Shown here piece after piece: positions 36,082-46,814 of a stretch of 64,000 nucleotides of DNA. A program made the position numbers and the translations under genes. Origin of the DNA: an uncultured delta proteobacterium (GTDB taxonomy: Bacteria > Myxococcota_A > UBA9160 > SZUA-336); contig CAVPHD010000004.1 of assembly GCA_963704165.1 (NCBI GenBank), positions 288,001 to 352,000 on the forward strand, read 5' to 3'. The notes under the pieces are model-generated. The model was not told where the DNA came from and ran no database searches. It was given only the letters and a program-made list of their open reading frames with translations. Numbering within the stretch: position 1 is the stretch's first letter; every line of letters starts with the position of its first letter.

Positions 36082-37164
36082 ATGACGATCTCTCTCCCCG
36101 ATGCACATCCGAGCTCGCAGACCGGCGTGAAGACCTCGTTCGAGGCGCTCTACAACTGGAACTACGGCAGCGAGATCGACCAGCTTCGCACCCTGTACGC
36201 CAACGCGCTCGACCGTCAGTGGATCGCACTGCGCGATCTCGACTGGGAGCGCGAGATCGACCGCGAGGCGTTCTCGCGCACCTTCTCGCTCGCAGGGATT
36301 CCGATCCAGGAGACGCGCTTCTGGCGCGATCTCGGTGAGGATCTCCGCTGGAAGCTCGCGCGTTCCAGCGCGGCGTTCATGCTCTCGAACTTCCTGCACG
36401 GCGAACAGGGCGCGCTGATGGTCGCCGCGCAGCTCGTCAACGCCGTTCCGCACATGGACGGCAAGTTCTACGCCGCGACGCAGACCCTCGACGAGGCGCG
36501 GCACGTCGAGGTCTTCGCCGCCTACATCCAGAAGCTCGACGAGGTCCACCCGATCGCCCCCGGTCTGAAGCAGCTGCTCGACAACGTGCTGCAGGCCGAC
36601 GACTGGAAGAAGAAGGCGGTCGGCATGCAGGTCGTCACGGAGGGGCTGGCGTTGTACTCGTTCCGCGACATGCGAAACCAGACCGAAGAGCCGCTGCTGA
36701 AGCAGCTTCTGACCTACGTCTCGCGGGACGAGGCGCGCCACACGGCCTACGGCGTGAAGTACCTGTCGGCGGTCGTTCCGACGCTCGGCGATGCGGAGCG
36801 CGCGGAGCTCGAGGACTTCGCCTTCGAGGCTGCGCGGCTTCTCGTCGATGCGCGTGCGGGGAACTCGATTCGCGAGACGATCTTCAAGCTCTGGACATCG
36901 CTCGGAATCGACATGGCTGCGGCGCTGACGTCGATCCTAGAAGACCGGGAACGCATCGTGAAAGGGATGGAGCGCTCCGGGGGGCGGCTGGGGCCCGTGC
37001 GCGGGTTCGTGATTCCGACGCTGAACTCGATCGGCCTCTACAGCGATCGTGTGCGCGGTCATTTCGACGAGATGTTCCGCGCGAACCTCGGCGACGATCT
37101 CGCGCGCGACACGTCGGTGATTCCCGACCTGCCCGACGATCTCGAGGCCTGGGCGGAGAGCTAG
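36082..37164 (+). CDS. Ferritin-like diiron protein (AurF/decarbonylase-like superfamily)
   Basis: HGEQGAL, DEARHVE, TEGLA, DEARH: two E...ExxH halves. Confidence 0.85.
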   Translation: MTISLPDAHPSSQTGVKTSFEALYNWNYGSEIDQLRTLYANALDRQWIALRDLDWEREIDREAFSRTFSLAGIPIQETRFWRDLGEDLRWKLARSSAAFMLSNFLHGEQGALMVAAQLVNAVPHMDGKFYAATQTLDEARHVEVFAAYIQKLDEVHPIAPGLKQLLDNVLQADDWKKKAVGMQVVTEGLALYSFRDMRNQTEEPLLKQLLTYVSRDEARHTAYGVKYLSAVVPTLGDAERAELEDFAFEAARLLVDARAGNSIRETIFKLWTSLGIDMAAALTSILEDRERIVKGMERSGGRLGPVRGFVIPTLNSIGLYSDRVRGHFDEMFRANLGDDLARDTSVIPDLPDDLEAWAES

Positions 37165-38205
37165 CTACTCGGCGTCGCCAGGCCAGTCCGCGGAGTAGTG
37201 CGCCGCGCGAGTCCAGCCCGAGGTTTCCCAGGTCGTGCCGCTCTCGTCGATCAGGATGCCCTCGGCATCGGGCAGGGACTCGAGCAACTCGATCCCCTCC
37301 TTCTCGCCCAGGATCAGGAGCGCCTTCGACAGCGCCTCCGCTCGCGCGCCGTCCTCCGCCAGCGCGGCGGCGACACGCGCCCGTGTCAGGGGCTCACCGG
37401 TACGGGGATCGATCACGTGACCGAAACGTCGGCCCTCGATCTCGCTGTACTGGCCGAGGCTCCCCGATACCGAGAGCGACCGGTCGGCGAGCTGCGCCGT
37501 TCCGGCAAAGCCTCCGGAGGCATCGCCGAGGAGGACTCCCCATCCGTCCCAGCCCGCGGGTCGACCGAGCGCGCACAGGCTGCTCTGGCCGAACGCGAGC
37601 AGTGCGCGCGAGACGCCGGCCGCGCGCAGCTTCGCGGCGAGCCGATCGAGCGCCCAGCCTTTCGCGATCCCGCCGAAGTCGAGCATCGCGCCCGCGTCGC
37701 GAAGCTCGACGGTGCTCGCCGCGAGATCGACCTTCACGCCGTCGGGTCCGACGAGGGCGCGTGAGGCAGCCAGCGCGTCCGCATCCGGCAGCGTGCGCGA
37801 TCGGTCGGCCTCGATCCAGAGGGCGACGAGCGGCCCGACCGTCACGTCGAAGGCGCCGCGGGTGAGTGCAGTGTAGTCGATGGACCGCTCCGTGAGCTCG
37901 GCGAAGGGCTCGGCGACGGAAACCGGACCCGACCCCGCCGCGCGGTTCAGCTTCGAGAGATCGCTCGCTACGTCGAAGCGCGAGAGCATCCGTTCGAGCC
38001 GCGCGACCTCGTCGAACGATTCGCGCAGCAGCGCCAAGCCGTGCGCGCGCTCGGTGACGCAGACGCTGATCTCGAGGACCGTGCCCATCAGGTATCGACC
38101 GTCGGACACCGTCACGGGGCAGACCTGGGCGGGATCCTCGTGAAGCGAAGGGCTCGTGCAGCCCGACAGGGCCGCGAACGCCATCGCAGCCAGTCTTCTC
38201 CTCAA
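37165..38205 (-). CDS. apbE: FAD:protein FMN transferase ApbE (lipoprotein)
   Basis: MGT, G.FDVTVGPLV.LW, DFGGIAKGWA.D, SVSG, H.IDPRTG, AE.LSKAL; MRRRLAAMAFAALSGC lipobox from TTG 38205 (alternative ATG 38184). Confidence 0.93.
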   Translation of the reverse strand: MRRRLAAMAFAALSGCTSPSLHEDPAQVCPVTVSDGRYLMGTVLEISVCVTERAHGLALLRESFDEVARLERMLSRFDVASDLSKLNRAAGSGPVSVAEPFAELTERSIDYTALTRGAFDVTVGPLVALWIEADRSRTLPDADALAASRALVGPDGVKVDLAASTVELRDAGAMLDFGGIAKGWALDRLAAKLRAAGVSRALLAFGQSSLCALGRPAGWDGWGVLLGDASGGFAGTAQLADRSLSVSGSLGQYSEIEGRRFGHVIDPRTGEPLTRARVAAALAEDGARAEALSKALLILGEKEGIELLESLPDAEGILIDESGTTWETSGWTRAAHYSADWPGDAE

Positions 38206-38705
38206 ACTTCGCCGCTCCGATAGCCGGTGCTGGTTCCGCGGAAGGACGACCAGAGCGAGAGGACCACCAATACGGCGAGGCTCGTCTGCAGTCCGAGAAA
38301 CCCGGCGATCTTGAGCCACGCGAAGTGAGGCGACACGAAGCGGACGAGCCAACCGGATCCCTCGTCGACCAGACCGAACAGGAATGGCAGCGCGATCAAC
38401 CACGCCTTGGTGCGATTCGCGAGCGGAACGAAGAGTACCAGATGCGTCAGGACGAGCAAAAGCATCCCGATCGCGAAGAGGTGGAAGTGAGACACCTCGA
38501 GCAGGCCCGCGTAGCTTCGCGGCTCGCGGAACTCCTCTTCGGAGCCGAGGTAGTGCGCGACCACCGACTCCGGTGTGAGTCCCATCCGGTCGAAGTAGAG
38601 CGCGGTATTGGTCAGCCAGAGCAGCGCGACGAAGAGGGAATAGAGCACGACGATCGTCTGGAGCAGACGATTGCGATTCATCTCGCCCGTGATCACGAAC
38701 CGCAC
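38202..38705 (-). CDS. Four-TM membrane protein with clustered histidines (possible heme b protein)
   Basis: Hydrophobic helices with LEVSHFHLF, VLTHLV and SPHF; co-operonic with apbE. Confidence 0.75.
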   Translation of the reverse strand: MRFVITGEMNRNRLLQTIVVLYSLFVALLWLTNTALYFDRMGLTPESVVAHYLGSEEEFREPRSYAGLLEVSHFHLFAIGMLLLVLTHLVLFVPLANRTKAWLIALPFLFGLVDEGSGWLVRFVSPHFAWLKIAGFLGLQTSLAVLVVLSLWSSFRGTSTGYRSGEV

Positions 38706-38717
38706 GCGCGGCTCCGG

Positions 38718-39290
38718 CTACTCGGCGGCGTCGTGGTTTCCAAGCAGGACTTGATATAGCGCGAGGGCCGTGCGGACGCTGCGCGTCACGGCCTGCGACG
38801 AGAGCGTGGCGCCTGCGATCGTGTGGATCCCGCGCTTCAGGTGGAGATCCGGCCCGAGATGCCTTCCGCCGATCGTCGCGAGCCAACGCTCCGACGGCTG
38901 GTACTCGGTTGGTTCGTGAAAGGCGAGGATGCGCAGCGAGTGGACCGATCCGTCGGGTGCGATCACGATGAGCAGCGCCTCGGGCAGCGTGCGCACGTTG
39001 CGCACGTCGATGACCGCGGAGCCGAGCATTTCGTTCCCGCGAAAGGCCGAGTAGACGGTCCAGATCTGGCGCTCAAGGGCTGCGAGCGATCGGGTCTCGA
39101 TCGCCCGCGCCTGCTCGGGTGTCAGGACGAAGCTCTTCTCGTCGATCCGATCCGCGTCGGGAAAGGCCTGGCGCAGCGCTTCCTGCTTGCTCGCGTACAC
39201 GGTCGCGTGCGCCCCCGGAGCGAGCAGGGTCGCGAGCAGGGCGACGAGTCCCGCGGTGGCGAGCGTCCTAGAAGACGAGACCGAAGCCAA
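38718..39290 (-). CDS. Exported FMN-binding domain protein (ApbE substrate)
   Basis: Signal peptide ending AHA; FHEP.EY; C-terminal TIAGATLSS flavinylation-type motif; GAGGTGA before TTG. Confidence 0.85.
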   Translation of the reverse strand: MASVSSSRTLATAGLVALLATLLAPGAHATVYASKQEALRQAFPDADRIDEKSFVLTPEQARAIETRSLAALERQIWTVYSAFRGNEMLGSAVIDVRNVRTLPEALLIVIAPDGSVHSLRILAFHEPTEYQPSERWLATIGGRHLGPDLHLKRGIHTIAGATLSSQAVTRSVRTALALYQVLLGNHDAAE

Positions 39291-40590
39291 GGCTCACCTC
39301 GTTGGTGCTCGAGTGGGCGAAGTCATCGACGCTGCGATAGTCGAGCTTCAAGACCACGTTTGGAATCGGCTTGAACTGAACGCCCGGGATGTACATGCGC
39401 TGCTTGTAGGCGCGGTCGGCGGTGAAGCCGCGCGGAACGTCGTTCTGGGTGTCGATGTACTCGAAGCGGAAGAACGGCTCGAGTGACATCTCCGAACCCG
39501 GGAAGAAGAACGGCATCAGGTCGTACGCGACCTCGGCATAGCCGCCGATCATGCGACGCGAGACGACCGGATGATCCTCACCCGCGAGCGTCAGCAGGTT
39601 CGACAGAGCCCCGGCATCCGCCACGTGTGCCTGGGTCCAGAGTGCGCGGGTCGTGAGCGCCTGCCAGCGGTACTCACCGTGAACCTCCCAGATCGTCGTG
39701 CGGGCGTTGGGCAGCGAGAAGTCGCTCCCACCGATCTCGATGTCCTGATCCTGACCGGAGTTGCCGACGTAGTACGAGCTTCCGAGACGAAGTCCGTCGG
39801 TCACGTCGAGGTCGACGCGGCCGACGAACGCGAGATCGTTCGCGAGCGCTTCGCTGCCGCTCTGCCTTCCGCTTCGCAGCCCGCCCGAATTGAAGTCACT
39901 CGCAACGAAGCCGTTCACGACGTAGACGCGGTAGCTCAGCCGCTCGCCCAGATTCCCGAAGATGCCAAGACCGTTCTCGCGCCAGGTCGAAGGAATGATC
40001 ACGCGCTCCGCCGTGGGCCGGAACGTCGAGTAGTAGAACGGCGGCTCGTGAAGCTCGTTCACGAGGCCCATCGGGATCAGGACCTCACCGAGGCGGACGT
40101 TGAGCTCGGGCATGAGCAGGAAGTCCAGCGTCGCGAACTCTACGCTCACCGAGCCGTCCTCGTCGGTGCTGCCGTGCTCGAACTCGATCTCGGTGTTGAA
40201 GACGATCCAGTCGTTGAATTTGTAGCCGAGGTACGCGACGAGCCGGAGCATGTCGGTCTCGTCGTCGGCGCCCGAATCCCGACGCCGGTAGTAACCCTCG
40301 GAGTAGCCGCCGATCGAGAGGCCGCGTGCGACGCTGTAGACCTTCGACGCAGCGGGGCCGAGCCCGTACTGGCTCTCGAGCGCGCTCGGTGCTTCCGGCG
40401 CGGCCACCTGCGTCCGGATCGACTCGAGTTCGCTGACCACCACCCCGAGCTGGCGCTTCAGCTCGGCGATCTCGTCGTCGCGCGCGATCTCGCGATCGCT
40501 GGGCTCCTCGGCCCGCGCGGGCGGAGCCCAGGGAGGAGCCAGAGCCAGGATCAATGTCAGAAACCCCAGAAGCCGCCCCGAAAACGCCAC
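39268..40590 (-). CDS. Outer-membrane beta-barrel porin with N-terminal coiled coil
   Basis: Signal peptide, DEIAELKRQL coiled coil, RLV.YLGYKF....FNTEIEFEH, NE.HEP, IIPSTWRE.G, C-terminal LGFGLVF. Confidence 0.85.
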   Translation of the reverse strand: MAFSGRLLGFLTLILALAPPWAPPARAEEPSDREIARDDEIAELKRQLGVVVSELESIRTQVAAPEAPSALESQYGLGPAASKVYSVARGLSIGGYSEGYYRRRDSGADDETDMLRLVAYLGYKFNDWIVFNTEIEFEHGSTDEDGSVSVEFATLDFLLMPELNVRLGEVLIPMGLVNELHEPPFYYSTFRPTAERVIIPSTWRENGLGIFGNLGERLSYRVYVVNGFVASDFNSGGLRSGRQSGSEALANDLAFVGRVDLDVTDGLRLGSSYYVGNSGQDQDIEIGGSDFSLPNARTTIWEVHGEYRWQALTTRALWTQAHVADAGALSNLLTLAGEDHPVVSRRMIGGYAEVAYDLMPFFFPGSEMSLEPFFRFEYIDTQNDVPRGFTADRAYKQRMYIPGVQFKPIPNVVLKLDYRSVDDFAHSSTNEVSLGFGLVF

Positions 40591-40612
40591 AACGCTCTCC
40601 TTGGCCTTTGTC

Positions 40613-40637
40613 GATATTGAGAATCGATCTCATAATC
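40613..40637. promoter_or_regulatory. Fur-family operator-like AT-rich inverted repeat
   Basis: GATATTGAGA-ATCGA-TCTCATAATC; core TGAGAAT-C-GATCTCA resembles the 7-1-7 Fur consensus TGATAATnATTATCA. Confidence 0.75.
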
Positions 40638-40667
40638 AACCTACCGAGCGGGGGAGCGAGATGTCAA
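40638..40667 (-). promoter_or_regulatory. Putative sigma70 promoter of the porin operon (TTGACA-N18-TAGGTT)
   Basis: -35 overlaps the RND stop codon; the predicted start site falls inside the Fur-like box. Confidence 0.6.
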
Positions 40668-43600
40668 GCGCGGGTGCCGGGACGGGCCTCCTTCGCGGCT
40701 CCGGTCCGCGAGTCGCCGCGCCGGAGCCGCGTGCGCAGCGCCTCGACCGCGTCGTCGAGCTTCAAGTAGAAGACCGGAACGATCAGCAGGGTCAGGAGCA
40801 TCGACGAGGTCATCCCGGCGGCGGTCGCGATCGCCATGGGCTGGCGGGTCTCCGCGCCGGGACCGATGCCGAGTGCGGCCGGCAGCACGCCGAAGATCAT
40901 CGAGATCGCGGTCATCAACACGGGCCGCATGCGGATCGGCGCCGCCTTCCGCATCGCACTGACCTTGTCGAGGCCCTCGGCGCGAAGCTGGTTCGCGTAG
41001 TCGACGACCAGGATCGAGTTCTTCGTGACCAGTCCGAAGAGCAGCAGGATTCCGATCATGCTGAACAGGTTCAGCGTGTTTCCCGTCGCGAGCAGTCCGA
41101 TGCAAGCGCCGACCAACGCGAAGGGCACGGCGAGCATGACCGAGAGCGGATGCACGAAGCTCTCGAACTGCGCCGCGAGCACCATGTAGATCACGAGCAG
41201 GCCGAGAAGCAGCGCGGTGCCGAACTGACGCACGCTCTCCTGCATCGCCTCCGCCGAACCGGAGAGCGAGACCGTCACGTCCTCGGGCAGCACCTCCTTC
41301 GCGGCCGTGAACGCATCCTGGATCGCGGCGCCCAGCGGTTTGCCGTCGAGATTTCCGGAAACGGTCACGCTGCGCTGGCGGTTCGAGCGCGTGATCGCAG
41401 ACGGTGCGGCGCCGGTCTCGACGCTCACCAGGTTGCGCAGCTCCGTCAGTTTCCCGCCGCTGCCGCGCACGTAGAGCTGTTCGATCGACGCCGGGGTGTC
41501 GCGGTTCCCGCGGTCGAGCCGCATGCGGATGTCGAAGCGATTGCCGCCTTCCTTGAACACGCCGACGTCGAGTCCACCCACCATCAGCTGGACGACCTGG
41601 GCCACCGCCGACGCGTCGATCCCGAGCGCCGCGGCCTTTTCGCGATCCGGGAGGATGCGGACCTCGGGAAGGCCGAGCTTCAGGCTCTTGTCGAGATCGA
41701 CGAATCCCCCGCGCTCGCGCAGTGCACCGATGAAGCGATCGGCGTGGTGATCGAGCTCGGTCAGCGCGAGATTCCCGCGCAGCAGCACCTCGAACTGTGC
41801 GCCGCTGCCGCCTCCGCCCTGCATCGTGGACGGATCGAAGATCTTGATCTTCTGACCCGGGATCGCGCCGAGCACCTCGCGCGCCTCCTTGATCAGGTCC
41901 TGCGAGGTGCGATCGCGCTCGTGGCTCGGACTCAGCGTCGCGAACATCATTCCGGTGTTCGGTCGGCCGATGCCGTCCCGCCCGCCGGTCCCGATCGACT
42001 CGAAGACGCCCTGGATCTCGGGTTGGACGAGCAGGTGGGCCTCGTTCATCTCCAGGTACCCCAGGGTCGCCGCGAGCGTCGATCCCGGCGGCGTCTCGAA
42101 GTTCGCGAAGAACATGCCGCGGTCCGAGGTCGGGAAGAATTCCGTACCGAGCCGCGTTCCCGCACCGCAGGCGACGAGAAGTGAGCCGACCGCGATCGCG
42201 AGCGTCGACCATTGGTGCGAGATCGACCAATCGAGCGCCCGTTCGTAGAGGCGCTCCAGGGCCAGGAAGCCCGCTTCGAGCGAGTGATAGACGCCCCCGT
42301 GTTTGCGCTCGGTCGGCGGCGGCATGCGCGATGCGAGCATCGGCGTGAGCGTCAGGGCGACGAAGAGCGAGATCAGCACCGAGCCGGCGACGGTGAGCCC
42401 GAACTCGCCGAGGAAGTTCCCGACGATTCCCTGCACGAAGACCACCGGAAGGAAGACCGCGCTCACGGAGAGCGTCGCGGCGGTGGCCGCGAAGGTGATC
42501 TGACGCGTGCCCTCGATCGCGGCATCTCGGGCGTTCTTGCCCATCTCGCGGTGACGCTCGATGTTCTCGAGCACGATGATCGCGTCGTCGATCACGACGC
42601 CGATCGCGAGCGCCATGCCGAGAAGCGTCATCGTGTTCAGCGTGTAGCCGGCGAGCCAGACCAGCGCGAAGGTCGTGATCAGCGAGACCGGGATCGCCGC
42701 CGCGACGATCAGCGTAGGTCGCGTCCGACGCAGGAAGACGAAGACGGTCAACACCGCGAGCAAGCCGCCGAAGACGAGCGCGAACTCCGTCTCCGCGACC
42801 GACTCGCGAATCGAGCGCGAGAAGTCGATGAAGCCGCTTCCCTCGTCGATCGAGATGCCTTCCGGGAGCAGCGGCCGGAGCTCCTGCAGGCGTCGGAACA
42901 CCTCGTCGCAGATCGCCACGGTGTTGCCGCCCGTCTGCTTGCGCACTCCAACGCCGACCGTCGGCACGCCGTTGTAGCGCGCGAGCGAGCGCACGTCGGC
43001 CTCGCCGTCCTCGACGCGTGCGACATCCTTCAGATAGACCGCCGCCTCGCCGCGATGCGCGATGACCATCCGCTCGAGCTGCTGCACCGAGCGGAACTCG
43101 GCGTCCGTCCGCACGCTCCATTCGATCATCGAGCCTTCGACCACGCCACCCGGAACGTCGACGTGCTCGCGGCGAAGTGCCGAGAGGATGTCTCCGGCGG
43201 CGAGGCCATGCGAGCTCAGGGCGTTGCCATCGACCCAGATGCGGATCGCCCGGTCGCGGCGACCGAAGACGACGATCCCGCCGACGCCCTCGATCGTCTC
43301 GAGCATCGGCTTGACGTGCCGGCGCACGTACTCGCTGGTCTCGACTGCGGGCCGAGTCGACTGGAACGGGATCCACAGCACCGGTTGGTCGTCGAAGTTC
43401 GTCTTCGAGACCGTCGGCGGCTCGACGTCGCGCGGAAGCATGCGGCGGGCCTTGGCCACCTCGTCCCGCACGTCCTGGATCGCACTGTCGAGATCTGTGC
43501 CGAGTTCGAACTCGACGAAGATCTGCGCGACGCCCGCGAGTGTCGTCGAGCGCAGGCTGCGAACGCCCGAGATCGTGTTCAGGTTCTCTTCGAGAACGTC

Positions 43601-43792
43601 GGTGACGTCCTCCTCCATCCCCTCGGGATCCGCGCCTTCGAGGTTGGCGATCACCATCACCACCGGGAATTCCATCGGTGGGAAGTGATCGACTCCGAGT
43701 CGTTCGAAGCCGAGCGCGCCCCCGACGACGAGCGCGAGCATCATCATCCACGTCAGCACCGGTCTCTGGATCGAAACGTCGGAGAGCGTCAT
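40664..43792 (-). CDS. RND efflux transporter permease (AcrB/HAE1-like)
   Basis: SI.RPV, GVVIDDAIIVLENI.RH, AVFLP, YMVLAAQFES, GLVTKNSIL.VD, R.RPVLMT. Confidence 0.96.
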   Translation of the reverse strand: MTLSDVSIQRPVLTWMMMLALVVGGALGFERLGVDHFPPMEFPVVMVIANLEGADPEGMEEDVTDVLEENLNTISGVRSLRSTTLAGVAQIFVEFELGTDLDSAIQDVRDEVAKARRMLPRDVEPPTVSKTNFDDQPVLWIPFQSTRPAVETSEYVRRHVKPMLETIEGVGGIVVFGRRDRAIRIWVDGNALSSHGLAAGDILSALRREHVDVPGGVVEGSMIEWSVRTDAEFRSVQQLERMVIAHRGEAAVYLKDVARVEDGEADVRSLARYNGVPTVGVGVRKQTGGNTVAICDEVFRRLQELRPLLPEGISIDEGSGFIDFSRSIRESVAETEFALVFGGLLAVLTVFVFLRRTRPTLIVAAAIPVSLITTFALVWLAGYTLNTMTLLGMALAIGVVIDDAIIVLENIERHREMGKNARDAAIEGTRQITFAATAATLSVSAVFLPVVFVQGIVGNFLGEFGLTVAGSVLISLFVALTLTPMLASRMPPPTERKHGGVYHSLEAGFLALERLYERALDWSISHQWSTLAIAVGSLLVACGAGTRLGTEFFPTSDRGMFFANFETPPGSTLAATLGYLEMNEAHLLVQPEIQGVFESIGTGGRDGIGRPNTGMMFATLSPSHERDRTSQDLIKEAREVLGAIPGQKIKIFDPSTMQGGGGSGAQFEVLLRGNLALTELDHHADRFIGALRERGGFVDLDKSLKLGLPEVRILPDREKAAALGIDASAVAQVVQLMVGGLDVGVFKEGGNRFDIRMRLDRGNRDTPASIEQLYVRGSGGKLTELRNLVSVETGAAPSAITRSNRQRSVTVSGNLDGKPLGAAIQDAFTAAKEVLPEDVTVSLSGSAEAMQESVRQFGTALLLGLLVIYMVLAAQFESFVHPLSVMLAVPFALVGACIGLLATGNTLNLFSMIGILLLFGLVTKNSILVVDYANQLRAEGLDKVSAMRKAAPIRMRPVLMTAISMIFGVLPAALGIGPGAETRQPMAIATAAGMTSSMLLTLLIVPVFYLKLDDAVEALRTRLRRGDSRTGAAKEARPGTRA

Positions 43793-43802
43793 GGACCGCG
43801 CG

Positions 43803-44936
43803 CTATTCCGCTTTGCTCGGCTGCCCGCGCTTTCCGCTCGCGACGTCGGGATCGAGCGCGCTGCCGTCGGCTGCACGCACCGTCACCACCGAACCGTCGA
43901 TGAGAGCCGTGTGTCCGCGGCTCACGACCTTGTCACCCAGGGTGACGCCTTCGACGATCTCGACGCGCCCGCCCTTGAATGCGCCCGTCTTCACGACGCG
44001 CCGCTCGACCCGGTTGCCTTCGACGAGACGGAAGATCACCGGACCATCGGAACGCTGGAGGATCGCCTCCTCCGGGATCATCACCACCCCGTCGCGCTGC
44101 GAGATGCCGAGGTCCGCGCGTGCGAACAACCCCGGGCGGAGCCGTGCATCGGGATTCGCGAGCGAGGCCTTCACGCGGAGCGTGCGGCTGTCCGGGTCGA
44201 TCGTGGGGGAGACGACCGTCACCGTGGCGCGGAAGACGTCGTCCGGGTAGGGCGCAACGCGCACGTCGACGATCTGCCCGATCTCGACCCGGCTCGAATC
44301 GATCTCGGCGACGCGGAACTCGACCTCGATCGGGTCGAGGGCCACGAGCTCGAACAGGCGGGTGCCGGGTTGTACGAACTCGCCGACGCTGACGAAGCGC
44401 CGAGCGATCATGCCGTCGAAAGGCGCGGTGACTTCGGCGTCGCGCTGAGCGCGCAGCGTCTCGTCGAGGCGCGCGGACGCGCCGTCGGCGCGCGAGCGTG
44501 CGAGGGCGAGCGCGGTTTCCGCCTGATCGAGCTGAGCCTGGGAAGCCACGTCGCTCTCGAAGAGCATCCTCACGCGTTCGGCCCCGCGCTTCGCATCGGC
44601 CCACGCGGCCCGGGCCTCGGCATCGACCGCGCTCGCGGCCTTCACCTCCAGGTTCCGTCGCTCCGGATCGATCTCGAGCACCCTCTGTCCGCTGGCGGCG
44701 GGCGCGCCGTCTTCCAGATACAACGCGGTGATCCGCCCACCGATCTCGGCTGCGATCGTCGCGTGATTCGGCGCGACCAACTCACCGGTCGCTTCGATTC
44801 GGTCCTCGAGATCGACCACGACGACATCGGAGAGCGCCACCATCGGTGCGTGCACCGTCGGCTCGTCACGCCCGCGCGAACATGCGAGCGCGAGCGGGGC
44901 GATGACGAAGAGCGCGAGAGCGATGCGAGAGGTCAT
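43803..44936 (-). CDS. RND periplasmic adaptor (membrane fusion) lipoprotein
   Basis: LAC lipobox, AEIGGRI, APFDG.I, G.FV.PG, LRPGLF, IPEEAI. Confidence 0.93.
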   Translation of the reverse strand: MTSRIALALFVIAPLALACSRGRDEPTVHAPMVALSDVVVVDLEDRIEATGELVAPNHATIAAEIGGRITALYLEDGAPAASGQRVLEIDPERRNLEVKAASAVDAEARAAWADAKRGAERVRMLFESDVASQAQLDQAETALALARSRADGASARLDETLRAQRDAEVTAPFDGMIARRFVSVGEFVQPGTRLFELVALDPIEVEFRVAEIDSSRVEIGQIVDVRVAPYPDDVFRATVTVVSPTIDPDSRTLRVKASLANPDARLRPGLFARADLGISQRDGVVMIPEEAILQRSDGPVIFRLVEGNRVERRVVKTGAFKGGRVEIVEGVTLGDKVVSRGHTALIDGSVVTVRAADGSALDPDVASGKRGQPSKAE

Positions 44937-45553
44937 CGGGCGGTCCTTTTCTCGGTGCCCGCGCGCAAGATGCCGCGGAGCATCGCGTCGAGTGCGACTT
45001 CGGCGAGATTCTTCGACCACGGGTAGGACGGATTGCCGATCTGGAGCGCGATGATCCCGTGCAGAAGAGCCCAGATCGACTGCTGTACGGCAACGACATC
45101 GTCGGTTTGCAGCCGGCCTGCGGCTGCGAGCACCTGGAGCGGCTCGGCCATGATCTCGCGAGTCTGCTCGGCCGCCGGCACCGTCCGCTGCTGTCCGTCG
45201 CGCGCGCCGCGCATCATCAATTGGTAGAAGGCGGGATTGCCGCGGCTGAAGCGCAAGAAGGCGCGCGCGTACTCGCGCGTGTTCTCGACCGGATCCGAAC
45301 CGAGCCGGACACGCCGAACTCGCTTCAGGAGCCGAGAGAACCGCTCCTCGAGCAGAGCGTCGATCAGTCCGTCCTTGTCGCGGAAATAGTGGTATATCGT
45401 GGGCGCCGTGAAGCCGCAGCGCGTGGCGAGCTTGCGGATCGAGAACTCCTCGATCCCGTCCTCGAGCAAGATCGCTTCCGTCGCGTCGAGAACCGCGCGG
45501 CGGGCCTCTTCGCGGTGGCGTGAGCGGCGGACTTCGGAGGGTTGGGTTTCCAT
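44933..45553 (-). CDS. TetR family regulator with WHG-type C-terminal domain
   Basis: FSIRKLA..CG.TAPTIYHYF.DK HTH; IWALLHG. Confidence 0.92.
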   Translation of the reverse strand: METQPSEVRRSRHREEARRAVLDATEAILLEDGIEEFSIRKLATRCGFTAPTIYHYFRDKDGLIDALLEERFSRLLKRVRRVRLGSDPVENTREYARAFLRFSRGNPAFYQLMMRGARDGQQRTVPAAEQTREIMAEPLQVLAAAGRLQTDDVVAVQQSIWALLHGIIALQIGNPSYPWSKNLAEVALDAMLRGILRAGTEKRTAR

Positions 45554-45570
45554 GGAACGGCGTGCAAGAC

Positions 45571-45587
45571 CTATAACGGTGTTATGG
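45571..45587. promoter_or_regulatory. Inverted repeat, putative TetR operator
   Basis: ctATAAC-GGT-GTTATgg, 18 nt upstream of the tetR ATG in the divergent intergenic region. Confidence 0.65.
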
Positions 45588-45653
45588 ACGCGCGATCCGG
45601 TGTATACCATCGCCATGGCCGAAGTCAAAACGCCCTCGGAATAGGTCGATCGC

Positions 45654-46814
45654 GTGCCCCTCGAGCTCACCGCGCGCGCCCGCGCATCCCGAACCTCGCC
45701 GATCCGCAGCATGACCGCGGAGTGCGCGCGCGTCGGTGGCATCAATCTCGCCCAGGGCGTCTGCGACACCCCGGTTCCCGAGCCGGTTCGACGCGCTGCG
45801 CGGTCGGCGATCGAGGAGGGCGCGAACAGCTACTCGCGCTCGGAGGGGTTGTCGGAGCTGCGGCGCGCGCTCGCCTCGAAAATGCGCCGCGACAACGAGC
45901 TCGACTGCGATCCGGACGCCGAGATCGTCGTCACCAGCGGGGCGACCGCGGCCTTCTACGTCGTCTGCCAGGCGCTTCTCGAGCCGGGAGACGAGGTGGT
46001 CCTGTTCGAGCCGTACTACGGCTACCACCGCAACACGCTCGAGGCGCTCGGGGTCGTCCCCCGCTACGTCACGCTCCGCGGCCCCGACTTCGCGTTGCCT
46101 CTGGGCGAGCTCGAGATCGCACTCTCCAAGCGAACGCGCGCGATCGTCGTCAACACGCCCGGAAATCCCTCGGGCAAGGTGTTCACGCGCGCCGAGCTGG
46201 AGGCGCTCGGCGCGATCGCCCGGGAGCGGGACATCTTCCTGCTCACCGACGAGGTCTACGAGCACTTCGTGTACGGCGGACGCCGGCATCTGAGCCCGGC
46301 GTCGCTGCCGGGCCTGCGCGAGCGCACGATCACGATGAACGCGCTCTCGAAGACGTTCGCGGTCACCGGCTGGCGGATCGGCTGGATCGCGGCCGACCGT
46401 CGCTTCGCCGAGGCCTTCACCCACCTGCACGATCTGGTGTACGTCTGCGCGCCCACGCCGCTGCAGCTCGGCTGCGCGCGCGGGCTCGATCAGCTGTCCC
46501 CCGAGTACTACGCCTCGATCGCCGTCGAGTACGAGCGCAAGCGCGATCAGCTCTGCCGGGCGCTCGCCTCCGCCGGACTCGCTCCGCAGGTGCCGCAGGG
46601 CTCGTACTTCGCGCTCGCGGACATCTCGCGCCTGCCCGGTTCGAACGGCGACGAACGCGCGCTCGCGCTCCTTCGCGCGTCGGGTGTCGCGTGCGTCCCC
46701 GGTACCGCATTCTGGCGCGATGGCGATGCGCACCGTCTCGGTCGGTTCTGCTTCGGCAAGACCGAACCCGATCTCGAGGAAGCGTGTCGGAGACTCACAA
46801 ACCTGCAGGTTTGA
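45654..46814 (+). CDS. PLP-dependent class I/II aminotransferase
   Basis: INLAQG, TSGAT, NTPGNPSG, DEVYE, SKTF.VTGWRIG, RFCF.K. Confidence 0.94.
   Translation: MPLELTARARASRTSPIRSMTAECARVGGINLAQGVCDTPVPEPVRRAARSAIEEGANSYSRSEGLSELRRALASKMRRDNELDCDPDAEIVVTSGATAAFYVVCQALLEPGDEVVLFEPYYGYHRNTLEALGVVPRYVTLRGPDFALPLGELEIALSKRTRAIVVNTPGNPSGKVFTRAELEALGAIARERDIFLLTDEVYEHFVYGGRRHLSPASLPGLRERTITMNALSKTFAVTGWRIGWIAADRRFAEAFTHLHDLVYVCAPTPLQLGCARGLDQLSPEYYASIAVEYERKRDQLCRALASAGLAPQVPQGSYFALADISRLPGSNGDERALALLRASGVACVPGTAFWRDGDAHRLGRFCFGKTEPDLEEACRRLTNLQV

Follow-up and report, generated by a model that had tools for sequence, protein, structure and literature searches.

A candidate iron-regulated envelope flavinylation operon with a PF27139 membrane protein in an uncultured deltaproteobacterium

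INTRODUCTION

Several ApbE-dependent flavinylation systems, the PepSY-like, MsrQ-like and P19-FTR1 systems, have been linked to iron assimilation; for the PepSY-like clusters, repression by Fur has been reported and a role in iron reduction for uptake proposed (Meheust 2021, PMC8238504; statements on this and on the other papers cited refer to excerpts of each). The DUF4405/FezC proteins are flavinylation-associated b-type cytochromes, and the haem sites of FezC were modelled via homodimerisation (Huang 2024, PMC11334425). A putative porin of Geobacter metallireducens and Desulfuromonas, psp, is preceded by tandem Fur boxes of the deltaproteobacterial type (dFUR), is weakly similar to the phosphate-selective porins (PF07396), has homologues in Aquifex and was given a speculative role in iron transport (Rodionov 2004, PMC545781). 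Here we analyse a 64,000-nucleotide stretch of DNA from an uncultured delta proteobacterium (assembly GCA_963704165.1, contig CAVPHD010000004.1, positions 288,001 to 352,000; hereafter the window). It contains a minus-strand operon that encodes a porin, an exported flavin mononucleotide (FMN)-binding carrier, a small membrane protein of family PF27139 and ApbE. We give slightly better than even odds (roughly 0.55) to the operon being an iron-starvation-induced periplasmic ferric reductase that feeds FeoB.

The operon resembles the systems of Meheust 2021 in combining ApbE, a predicted flavinylated extracytosolic carrier and a candidate membrane electron-transfer protein. It differs from the systems in the excerpts of that paper in its membrane partner, which is PF27139 and not PepSY, MsrQ, NapH, DsbD or NqrB; in its general-type porin with no TonB receptor, the word ‘porin’ being absent from the main text; and in the lack of DUF2271, DUF4198, VIT1, FTR1 and P19. 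With DUF4405/FezC it shares a small His-bearing membrane protein encoded beside apbE, whose putative haem site may likewise lie in a homodimer, but the PF27139 protein has no DUF4405 match at E 0.1 and carries an HxH motif and a third His on one helix, as opposed to the four central His described for those cytochromes in the excerpts of Huang 2024. The operon porin fits psp by description only, and Aquifex records hold a tandem form of the operon’s membrane protein; unlike the operon porin, psp is given no flavoprotein, membrane protein or ApbE partner in the passages that concern it. The likeness to Na+-NQR and Rnf lies in a carrier domain that is weakly RnfG/NqrC-like, in relatives whose operon abuts an NQR operon and in a sister form of the membrane protein that is fused to NqrC beside NqrF, but the operon contains no NqrB/D/E or RnfA/D/E genes.

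The original prediction called the system undescribed. We found no description of the four-gene unit in the literature searched (most subscription journals and a large supplement of Meheust 2021 lay outside its coverage), and none of aq_1259 or of aq_1262 to aq_1265. The general kind of system, ApbE with an FMN carrier and a membrane cytochrome for iron assimilation, is nevertheless already published, and a Fur-boxed porin that fits the operon porin was described in 2004, to judge from the psp passages.

RESULTS AND DISCUSSION

Operon organization and the predicted flavinylation pair

The four genes of the operon are as follows.

39268-40590, minus strand: porin gene; outer-membrane porin of 440 residues, OprO/P-like family
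38718-39290, minus strand: FMN-binding carrier gene; exported single FMN-binding domain protein of 190 residues
38202-38705, minus strand: PF27139 membrane protein gene; four-helix inner-membrane protein of 167 residues, candidate b-type cytochrome
37165-38205, minus strand: ApbE gene; predicted lipoprotein, FAD:protein FMN transferase, 346 residues

The tight coupling that had been noted is evident from the gene boundaries, and the gene neighbourhood is conserved in relatives. The carrier gene begins with TTG and overlaps the end of the porin gene by 23 nt, 12 nt separate it from the membrane protein gene, and the TTG start of the ApbE gene overlaps the TGA of its predecessor. Both an exported ApbE and an exported FMN-binding domain with a site of the [S/T]GA[S/T] type are encoded in a single unit. 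Signal peptides and the lipobox, which in ApbE reads MRRRLAAMAFAALSG-C at the N-terminus, were judged by eye.

The carrier passes the cut-off of FMN_bind (PF04205; 24.6 bits versus 22). The predicted AGATLSS site occupies residues 159–165, where Thr162 (codon 38807-38805), within H-T-I-A-G-A-T, is the predicted point of flavin attachment. This position is Thr in 46 of 48 carriers and Ser in the other 2, so that the site ends in Thr or Ser in 48/48 homologues, as expected of the flavinylation type. The tetrapeptide is AGAT in this carrier and SGAT in 15/48 homologues. No second FMN_bind gene was found in this genome, which is 84% complete, and there is therefore no sign of Nqr or Rnf in it; with none of their membrane subunits encoded in the operon either, the claim that these partners are absent is supported. 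The transferase matches PF02424 (E 3.9e-59) and keeps the catalytic His (HVIDP), and we assume that it is active. A second apbE lies elsewhere in the genome (G000:C12:189622-192588), downstream of divergent large uncharacterised genes; its cluster presumably includes TlpA, DUF4266 and DUF3570 proteins.

The porin

The assignment of envelope components was borne out at different levels: ApbE and the carrier pass their Pfam cut-offs, while the barrel matches OMP_b-brl at E 1.6e-5, below its cut-off, and owes its family to Atlas clusters. There it falls among porin clusters, some of which carry Porin_O_P in 19% of members, and a Ralstonia homologue at 27% identity passes the Porin_O_P cut-off. 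An N-terminal segment looks coiled-coil by eye. The invariant residues include E134, E136, E138, H139, E151, H181, E182 and E205 together with several Arg, and this Glu/His cluster suits a cation. A distant porin paralogue (E 1e-6) lies at G000:C4:11-3350 and is followed by a gene resembling FAD-dependent oxidoreductases; a similar-looking oxidoreductase gene follows the carrier and membrane protein genes in loci L082 and L084.

A Fur-type operator shared with iron genes

The region upstream of the porin gene contains the following elements; the boxes were scored with a position weight matrix trained on other genomes only.

40662-40667, minus strand: TTGACA, likely -35, read from the sequence; perfect hexamer that overlaps the stop codon of the upstream RND gene
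40643-40638, minus strand: TAGGTT, likely -10; 3/6 matches, 18 nt after TTGACA
40612-40632 (27.0 bits) and 40618-40638 (18.5 bits): two overlapping Fur-type boxes, 6 bp apart

The original prediction placed a sigma70 promoter here, overlapped by a Fur-like box. The -35 hexamer is perfect, but the -10 is weak and the box lies just downstream, touching the -10 by one base; a promoter scanner did not call the TTGACA/TAGGTT pair. A motif derived de novo from 35 porin upstream regions, with this genome excluded, reads TGAAATTGAAAATCATTTTCA and, scored by leave-one-out, occurs within 330 bp of 28/35 porin genes and within 900 bp of 33/35. Of the 712 control genes, 17 reach such scores, and 15 of them belong with the module, either as its first gene or through a common site: 11 encode carriers, for the most part at the start of copies that lack a porin, 2 represent another barrel-like gene next to the module, and 2 have such a site in divergent orientation. 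The remaining 2 have one unrelated site in common.

When the whole genome (3.87 Mb) was scanned, the operon box at 40612-40632 ranked first of 22 sites above 12 bits; one shuffled genome gave 0 sites above 18 bits. Fur-type sites also precede genes that, by their sequence signatures, are probably feoA-feoB (18.2 bits) and bfd (16.7 bits). The predicted Fur-like box is thus present, far above chance, and the operon appears to share its operator type with iron genes. The genome encodes three TonB-dependent receptors, none of them among the listed Fur-type sites, and three Fur-family genes, with its Fur at C8:13929-14336. The published dFUR box is WTGAAAATNATTTTCAW, and double boxes shifted by 6 bp have been described (Rodionov 2004, PMC545781). 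The operon site matches this consensus at 13/17 positions, the best in the window, and the agreement of both the motif and the 6-bp-shifted double box favours iron control. A fur gene lies directly upstream of the operon in 6/49 loci; this adjacent regulator scores best to Fur models, above Zur and PerR, yet below all cut-offs.

Conservation of the module

Synteny was counted in 49 loci with the short form of the membrane protein, after one duplicate had been dropped and four cytochrome-type loci set aside; 40 profile matches were sampled for long contigs or for distance, and genes were called by a crude script. These counts are depressed by contig ends and missed gene calls, and related loci are not independent. 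The four-gene neighbourhood recurs, with all genes in order in 26/49 loci. The carrier gene is directly upstream of the membrane protein gene in 46/49, the porin is in place in 35/49 and ApbE is directly downstream in 31/49 (within 3 genes in 33/49). The core of the module is therefore the carrier–membrane protein pair, porin and ApbE being less constant. In an earlier set of 14 loci, tblastn gave a similar picture (carrier upstream in 14, porin in 13 with one locus cut, ApbE directly downstream in 11).

The family profile of the membrane protein has matches in 93/301 genomes of the phylum, the weakest of which include the cytochrome c form described below, and in 50/57 searched genomes of the organism’s own class. 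Given this spread within the class, and a Fur-type box almost everywhere checked, the module may be a main route of iron acquisition in these uncultured bacteria that annotation has overlooked. By their titles, the records of the closest relatives are metagenome-assembled genomes of Myxococcota or Deltaproteobacteria. Locus L011 is titled Spirochaetaceae, yet its coordinates coincide with those of a genome assigned to this window’s class, and the record titles of such genomes are therefore unreliable for taxonomic range.

Several loci depart from the common arrangement. In L011, L013, L060 and L064 an NQR operon lies convergent to the module; the module lacks a separate apbE in L011 and L060, where it adjoins the apbE of NQR, an arrangement that suggests a flavin transferase shared with NQR. 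A different barrel-like gene takes the porin’s place at L069:9726-10532 and L071:6563-7258, with a strong Fur-box match (35–37 bits). In L005, L007, L052 and L058, a short Cys-rich frame (CRCxCG...LKCRRCKR) without a Pfam or NCBIfam match lies between fur and the porin gene. On Ralstonia plasmids the gene for the porin homologue precedes one for a same-subfamily carrier, and a cytochrome b561/DUF4405-like gene lies 1.7 kb downstream of these; no plasmid match was found for the membrane protein, and the listing gave no RNA holder.

The PF27139 membrane protein

The membrane protein has no match in local Pfam-A or NCBIfam at E 0.1, and the PepSY, MsrQ and DUF4405 families (PF03929/PF16357, PF01794, PF14358) likewise give none at that threshold. 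A newer precomputed Pfam family, PF27139 (Aq_1264_TM), is present on 120/120 homologues among the matches listed and on the top Atlas clusters. The predicted model has four long helices (pLDDT 93), in line with the four transmembrane segments first read from the sequence, and a loop between helices 1 and 2 that is probably periplasmic. The earlier description of a protein with clustered His was right as to conserved H73, H75 and H88, but ‘His-rich’ overstates a content of 5 His in 167 residues.

Four conserved residues, E70, H73, H75 and H88, all lie on helix 2 and are kept in 94%, 87%, 94% and 93%, respectively, of 69 single-domain representatives. Tandem proteins divide them between their repeats. 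In 17 such proteins, repeat 1 has H73 in 17/17 and H75 or H88 in none, and repeat 2 has H75 and H88 in 17/17 and H73 in 3. H73 and H75 are ~160 degrees apart on an ideal helix; from this separation and the tandem split, the simplest reading is a single site to which one unit contributes H73 and its partner H75. The split suggests, at the level of sequence, a shared haem site. Aquifex records include tandem forms, for which a search for loci found none, and one tandem protein carries an ApbE fusion. Fusions to ApbE were seen in 4 of the 24 longer homologues scanned. One protein, P0149, known from one contig only, joins the membrane domain to FeoA and a metal-binding domain of the DtxR type.

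Searches of the PDB by sequence returned nothing significant for the membrane protein, the porin or the carrier, and a second look with VIA recovered only generic four-helix bundles (best Z 9.5). A lead towards heme A synthase (CtaA/COX15; E 0.11, TM 0.25) was rejected, as hhalign against 17 CtaA proteins gave probabilities of at most 0.4%, equal to the reversed control.

A cytochrome c sister subfamily and NqrC fusions

A sister subfamily of ~250 residues accounts for nearly all of the profile matches in 97/401 genomes of another phylum, many of which look like Zetaproteobacteria by gene content. It carries PF27139 and aligns to the short form with an HHalign probability of 98.3% over residues 63–159. 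Database entries name its members ‘elongation factor-1 alpha’ or ‘cytochrome c’. CxxCH in the loop and HxH are kept together in 120/120 sister proteins among the matches listed, as against CxxCH in 0/120 of the closest short forms; H88 is not kept, and E70 becomes Arg while HxH stays. The sister form is often present in one to three copies per genome (loci L079-L081, L083, L085-L104 and L126-L174; proteins P0275-P0394).

Nine clusters (70–100% identity), probably of one clade, fuse the PF27139 domain and the cytochrome c motif to an FMN-binding NqrC domain. At L091:4379-9327 the order is cytochrome c, a porin-like gene, a small cytochrome c, the PF27139–cytochrome c–NqrC fusion and NqrF, flanked by heavy-metal efflux genes, a set that could possibly form a minimal NADH-to-envelope electron chain. 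Locus L125 has the same porin-like gene upstream of the fusion; this porin is only faintly similar to that of the operon. Other loci place the sister form next to hemN and small cytochromes or within a hydrogenase cluster. In 11/50 loci from relatives of a sister-form genome, and in 0/17 other loci, the gene directly upstream encodes an N-terminal CxxCH followed by a long barrel-like remainder. By its motif this gene is probably Cyc2-like; it has no NCBIfam match. The occurrence of both forms fits the flavin/cytochrome interchange described in the excerpts of Meheust 2021 (PMC8238504).

The cytochrome c sister subfamily, the NqrC fusions (beside NqrF in the one locus checked) and the histidine split in tandem proteins together suggest that the PF27139 protein is an electron-transfer module. 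More tentatively, and with the odds against it, the family may be an unrecognised class of inner-membrane cytochrome b in which HxH holds haem between two subunits. It would then be a plug-in module that connects the electron pool of the membrane with the envelope in three settings: together with a flavinylated carrier and a metal porin; with a cytochrome c inserted, downstream of Cyc2-like cytochrome-porins; or joined to NqrC next to NqrF. If so, PF27139 would be a missing inner-membrane partner both for reductive iron uptake and for Cyc2-type electron uptake, and, with the flavinylated carrier and metal porin, would serve TonB-independent iron uptake. The family could also be a sixth type of membrane partner for apbE clusters, many of which still have no assigned partner, and would gain a testable function, its cytochrome c form being deposited under an elongation factor name. 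The PF27139 domain is not tied to iron import, and electron flow through it may go either way.

A model for reductive iron uptake and its alternatives

We propose that Fur would release the operon under iron shortage and that the porin would admit iron to the periplasm. The exported carrier would receive FMN at Thr162 from ApbE, and the PF27139 protein would pass electrons from the membrane, probably from quinol, through a predicted haem b to that FMN. The carrier would then reduce its substrate, presumably Fe3+, and a Fur-controlled FeoB encoded elsewhere in the genome would be the likely importer of the resulting Fe2+. The membrane protein would work as a dimer, in which H73 and H75 from opposite units would be the likely ligands of a periplasm-side haem b; H88, near the cytoplasmic side, may contact a second cofactor or a quinone.

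A number of observations weigh against this model. The motif’s Asp is His in this carrier, as in 27/48 homologues (Asp in 13/48), and ApbE reads E-A-L-S-K in place of the D-x-L-S-T of solved ApbEs, a variant common to many operon copies; in excerpts of a review of ApbE, replacing the motif’s Asp had only a minor effect. Neither the monomer nor the tandem model had a Foldseek match at E 0.001, no significant solved relative of the fold was found in the Foldseek and VIA searches, and the two-His-on-two-helices pattern seen in PepSY, MsrQ and DUF4405 cytochromes is absent. Because both the cytochrome c subfamily and repeat 1 of the tandem proteins lack H88, a transmembrane two-haem wire is doubtful. 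Where the sister form stands in respiratory or hydrogenase contexts or beside Cyc2-like genes, electrons may flow inward. In this genome, two sites of 17–18 bits precede genes unrelated to iron. Many distant loci hold only the carrier and membrane protein, and at the Ralstonia locus neither an ApbE gene within 15 kb nor a Fur-box match at the operon was found. As for iron importers, co-location of which had been proposed as a check, feoAB lies next to the module in only 1/54 loci (in locus L056 it is divergent from the porin gene), and FTR1 was not found in the genome, which is 84% complete.

The rarity of adjacent importers leaves room for an iron-sparing role, which we regard as unlikely. 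Under starvation, the flavin carrier would replace a cytochrome c domain in an envelope electron-transfer step other than iron import, much as flavodoxin replaces ferredoxin, and the porin would admit the substrate of that step. A version of the same membrane domain does have a cytochrome c inserted, the two forms coexist within one genome (G128; G301), and excerpts of the literature document flavin/cytochrome swaps (Meheust 2021, PMC8238504) and Fur control of flavodoxin (Rodionov 2004, PMC545781). However, this genome, at 84% completeness, contains one match to the family profile and so offers no cytochrome form to replace, and a dedicated Glu/His-rich porin is kept in 35/49 loci.

A reading of the membrane protein as a metal permease, in which E70, H73, H75 and H88 would line the route of an ion through a dimer or pseudo-dimer while electrons from another source would let the flavoprotein adjust the redox state of iron, draws on the same scarcity of adjacent importers and on the placement of all conserved ligands on one helix, an internal duplication such as many transporters show, the lack of a match to known cytochromes and the single-contig fusion P0149 to a DtxR-type/FeoA module. 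We judge it quite improbable: cytochrome c and NqrC fusions beside NqrF indicate electrons rather than ions, an Arg stands in for E70 in the cytochrome c subfamily, whose HxH is retained, and the genome has a Fur-boxed feoAB. Very improbable, in our estimate, is control by another Fur-family member (Zur, Mur, Nur or PerR), with the module handling a different metal or oxidative stress. The three Fur-family genes of the genome, and an operator specificity predicted from sequence, give it some footing, but the motif agrees with the iron dFUR box of the literature and is also found ahead of feoAB and bfd, and the regulator adjacent to the operon in some relatives scores best to Fur models, if below all cut-offs. 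We retain the periplasmic ferric reductase as the preferred reading of the operon.

Neighbouring genes

Directly upstream of the operon and on the same strand (window 40664-45769, minus strand) are TetR, HlyD-family and RND efflux genes, none of which encodes an outer-membrane factor. They were considered as members of the system and rejected, since they recur in only 3 loci. On the other side, a ferritin-like di-iron protein with an AurF family match is encoded convergently at 36082-37164 on the plus strand, its end one base from the apbE stop codon.

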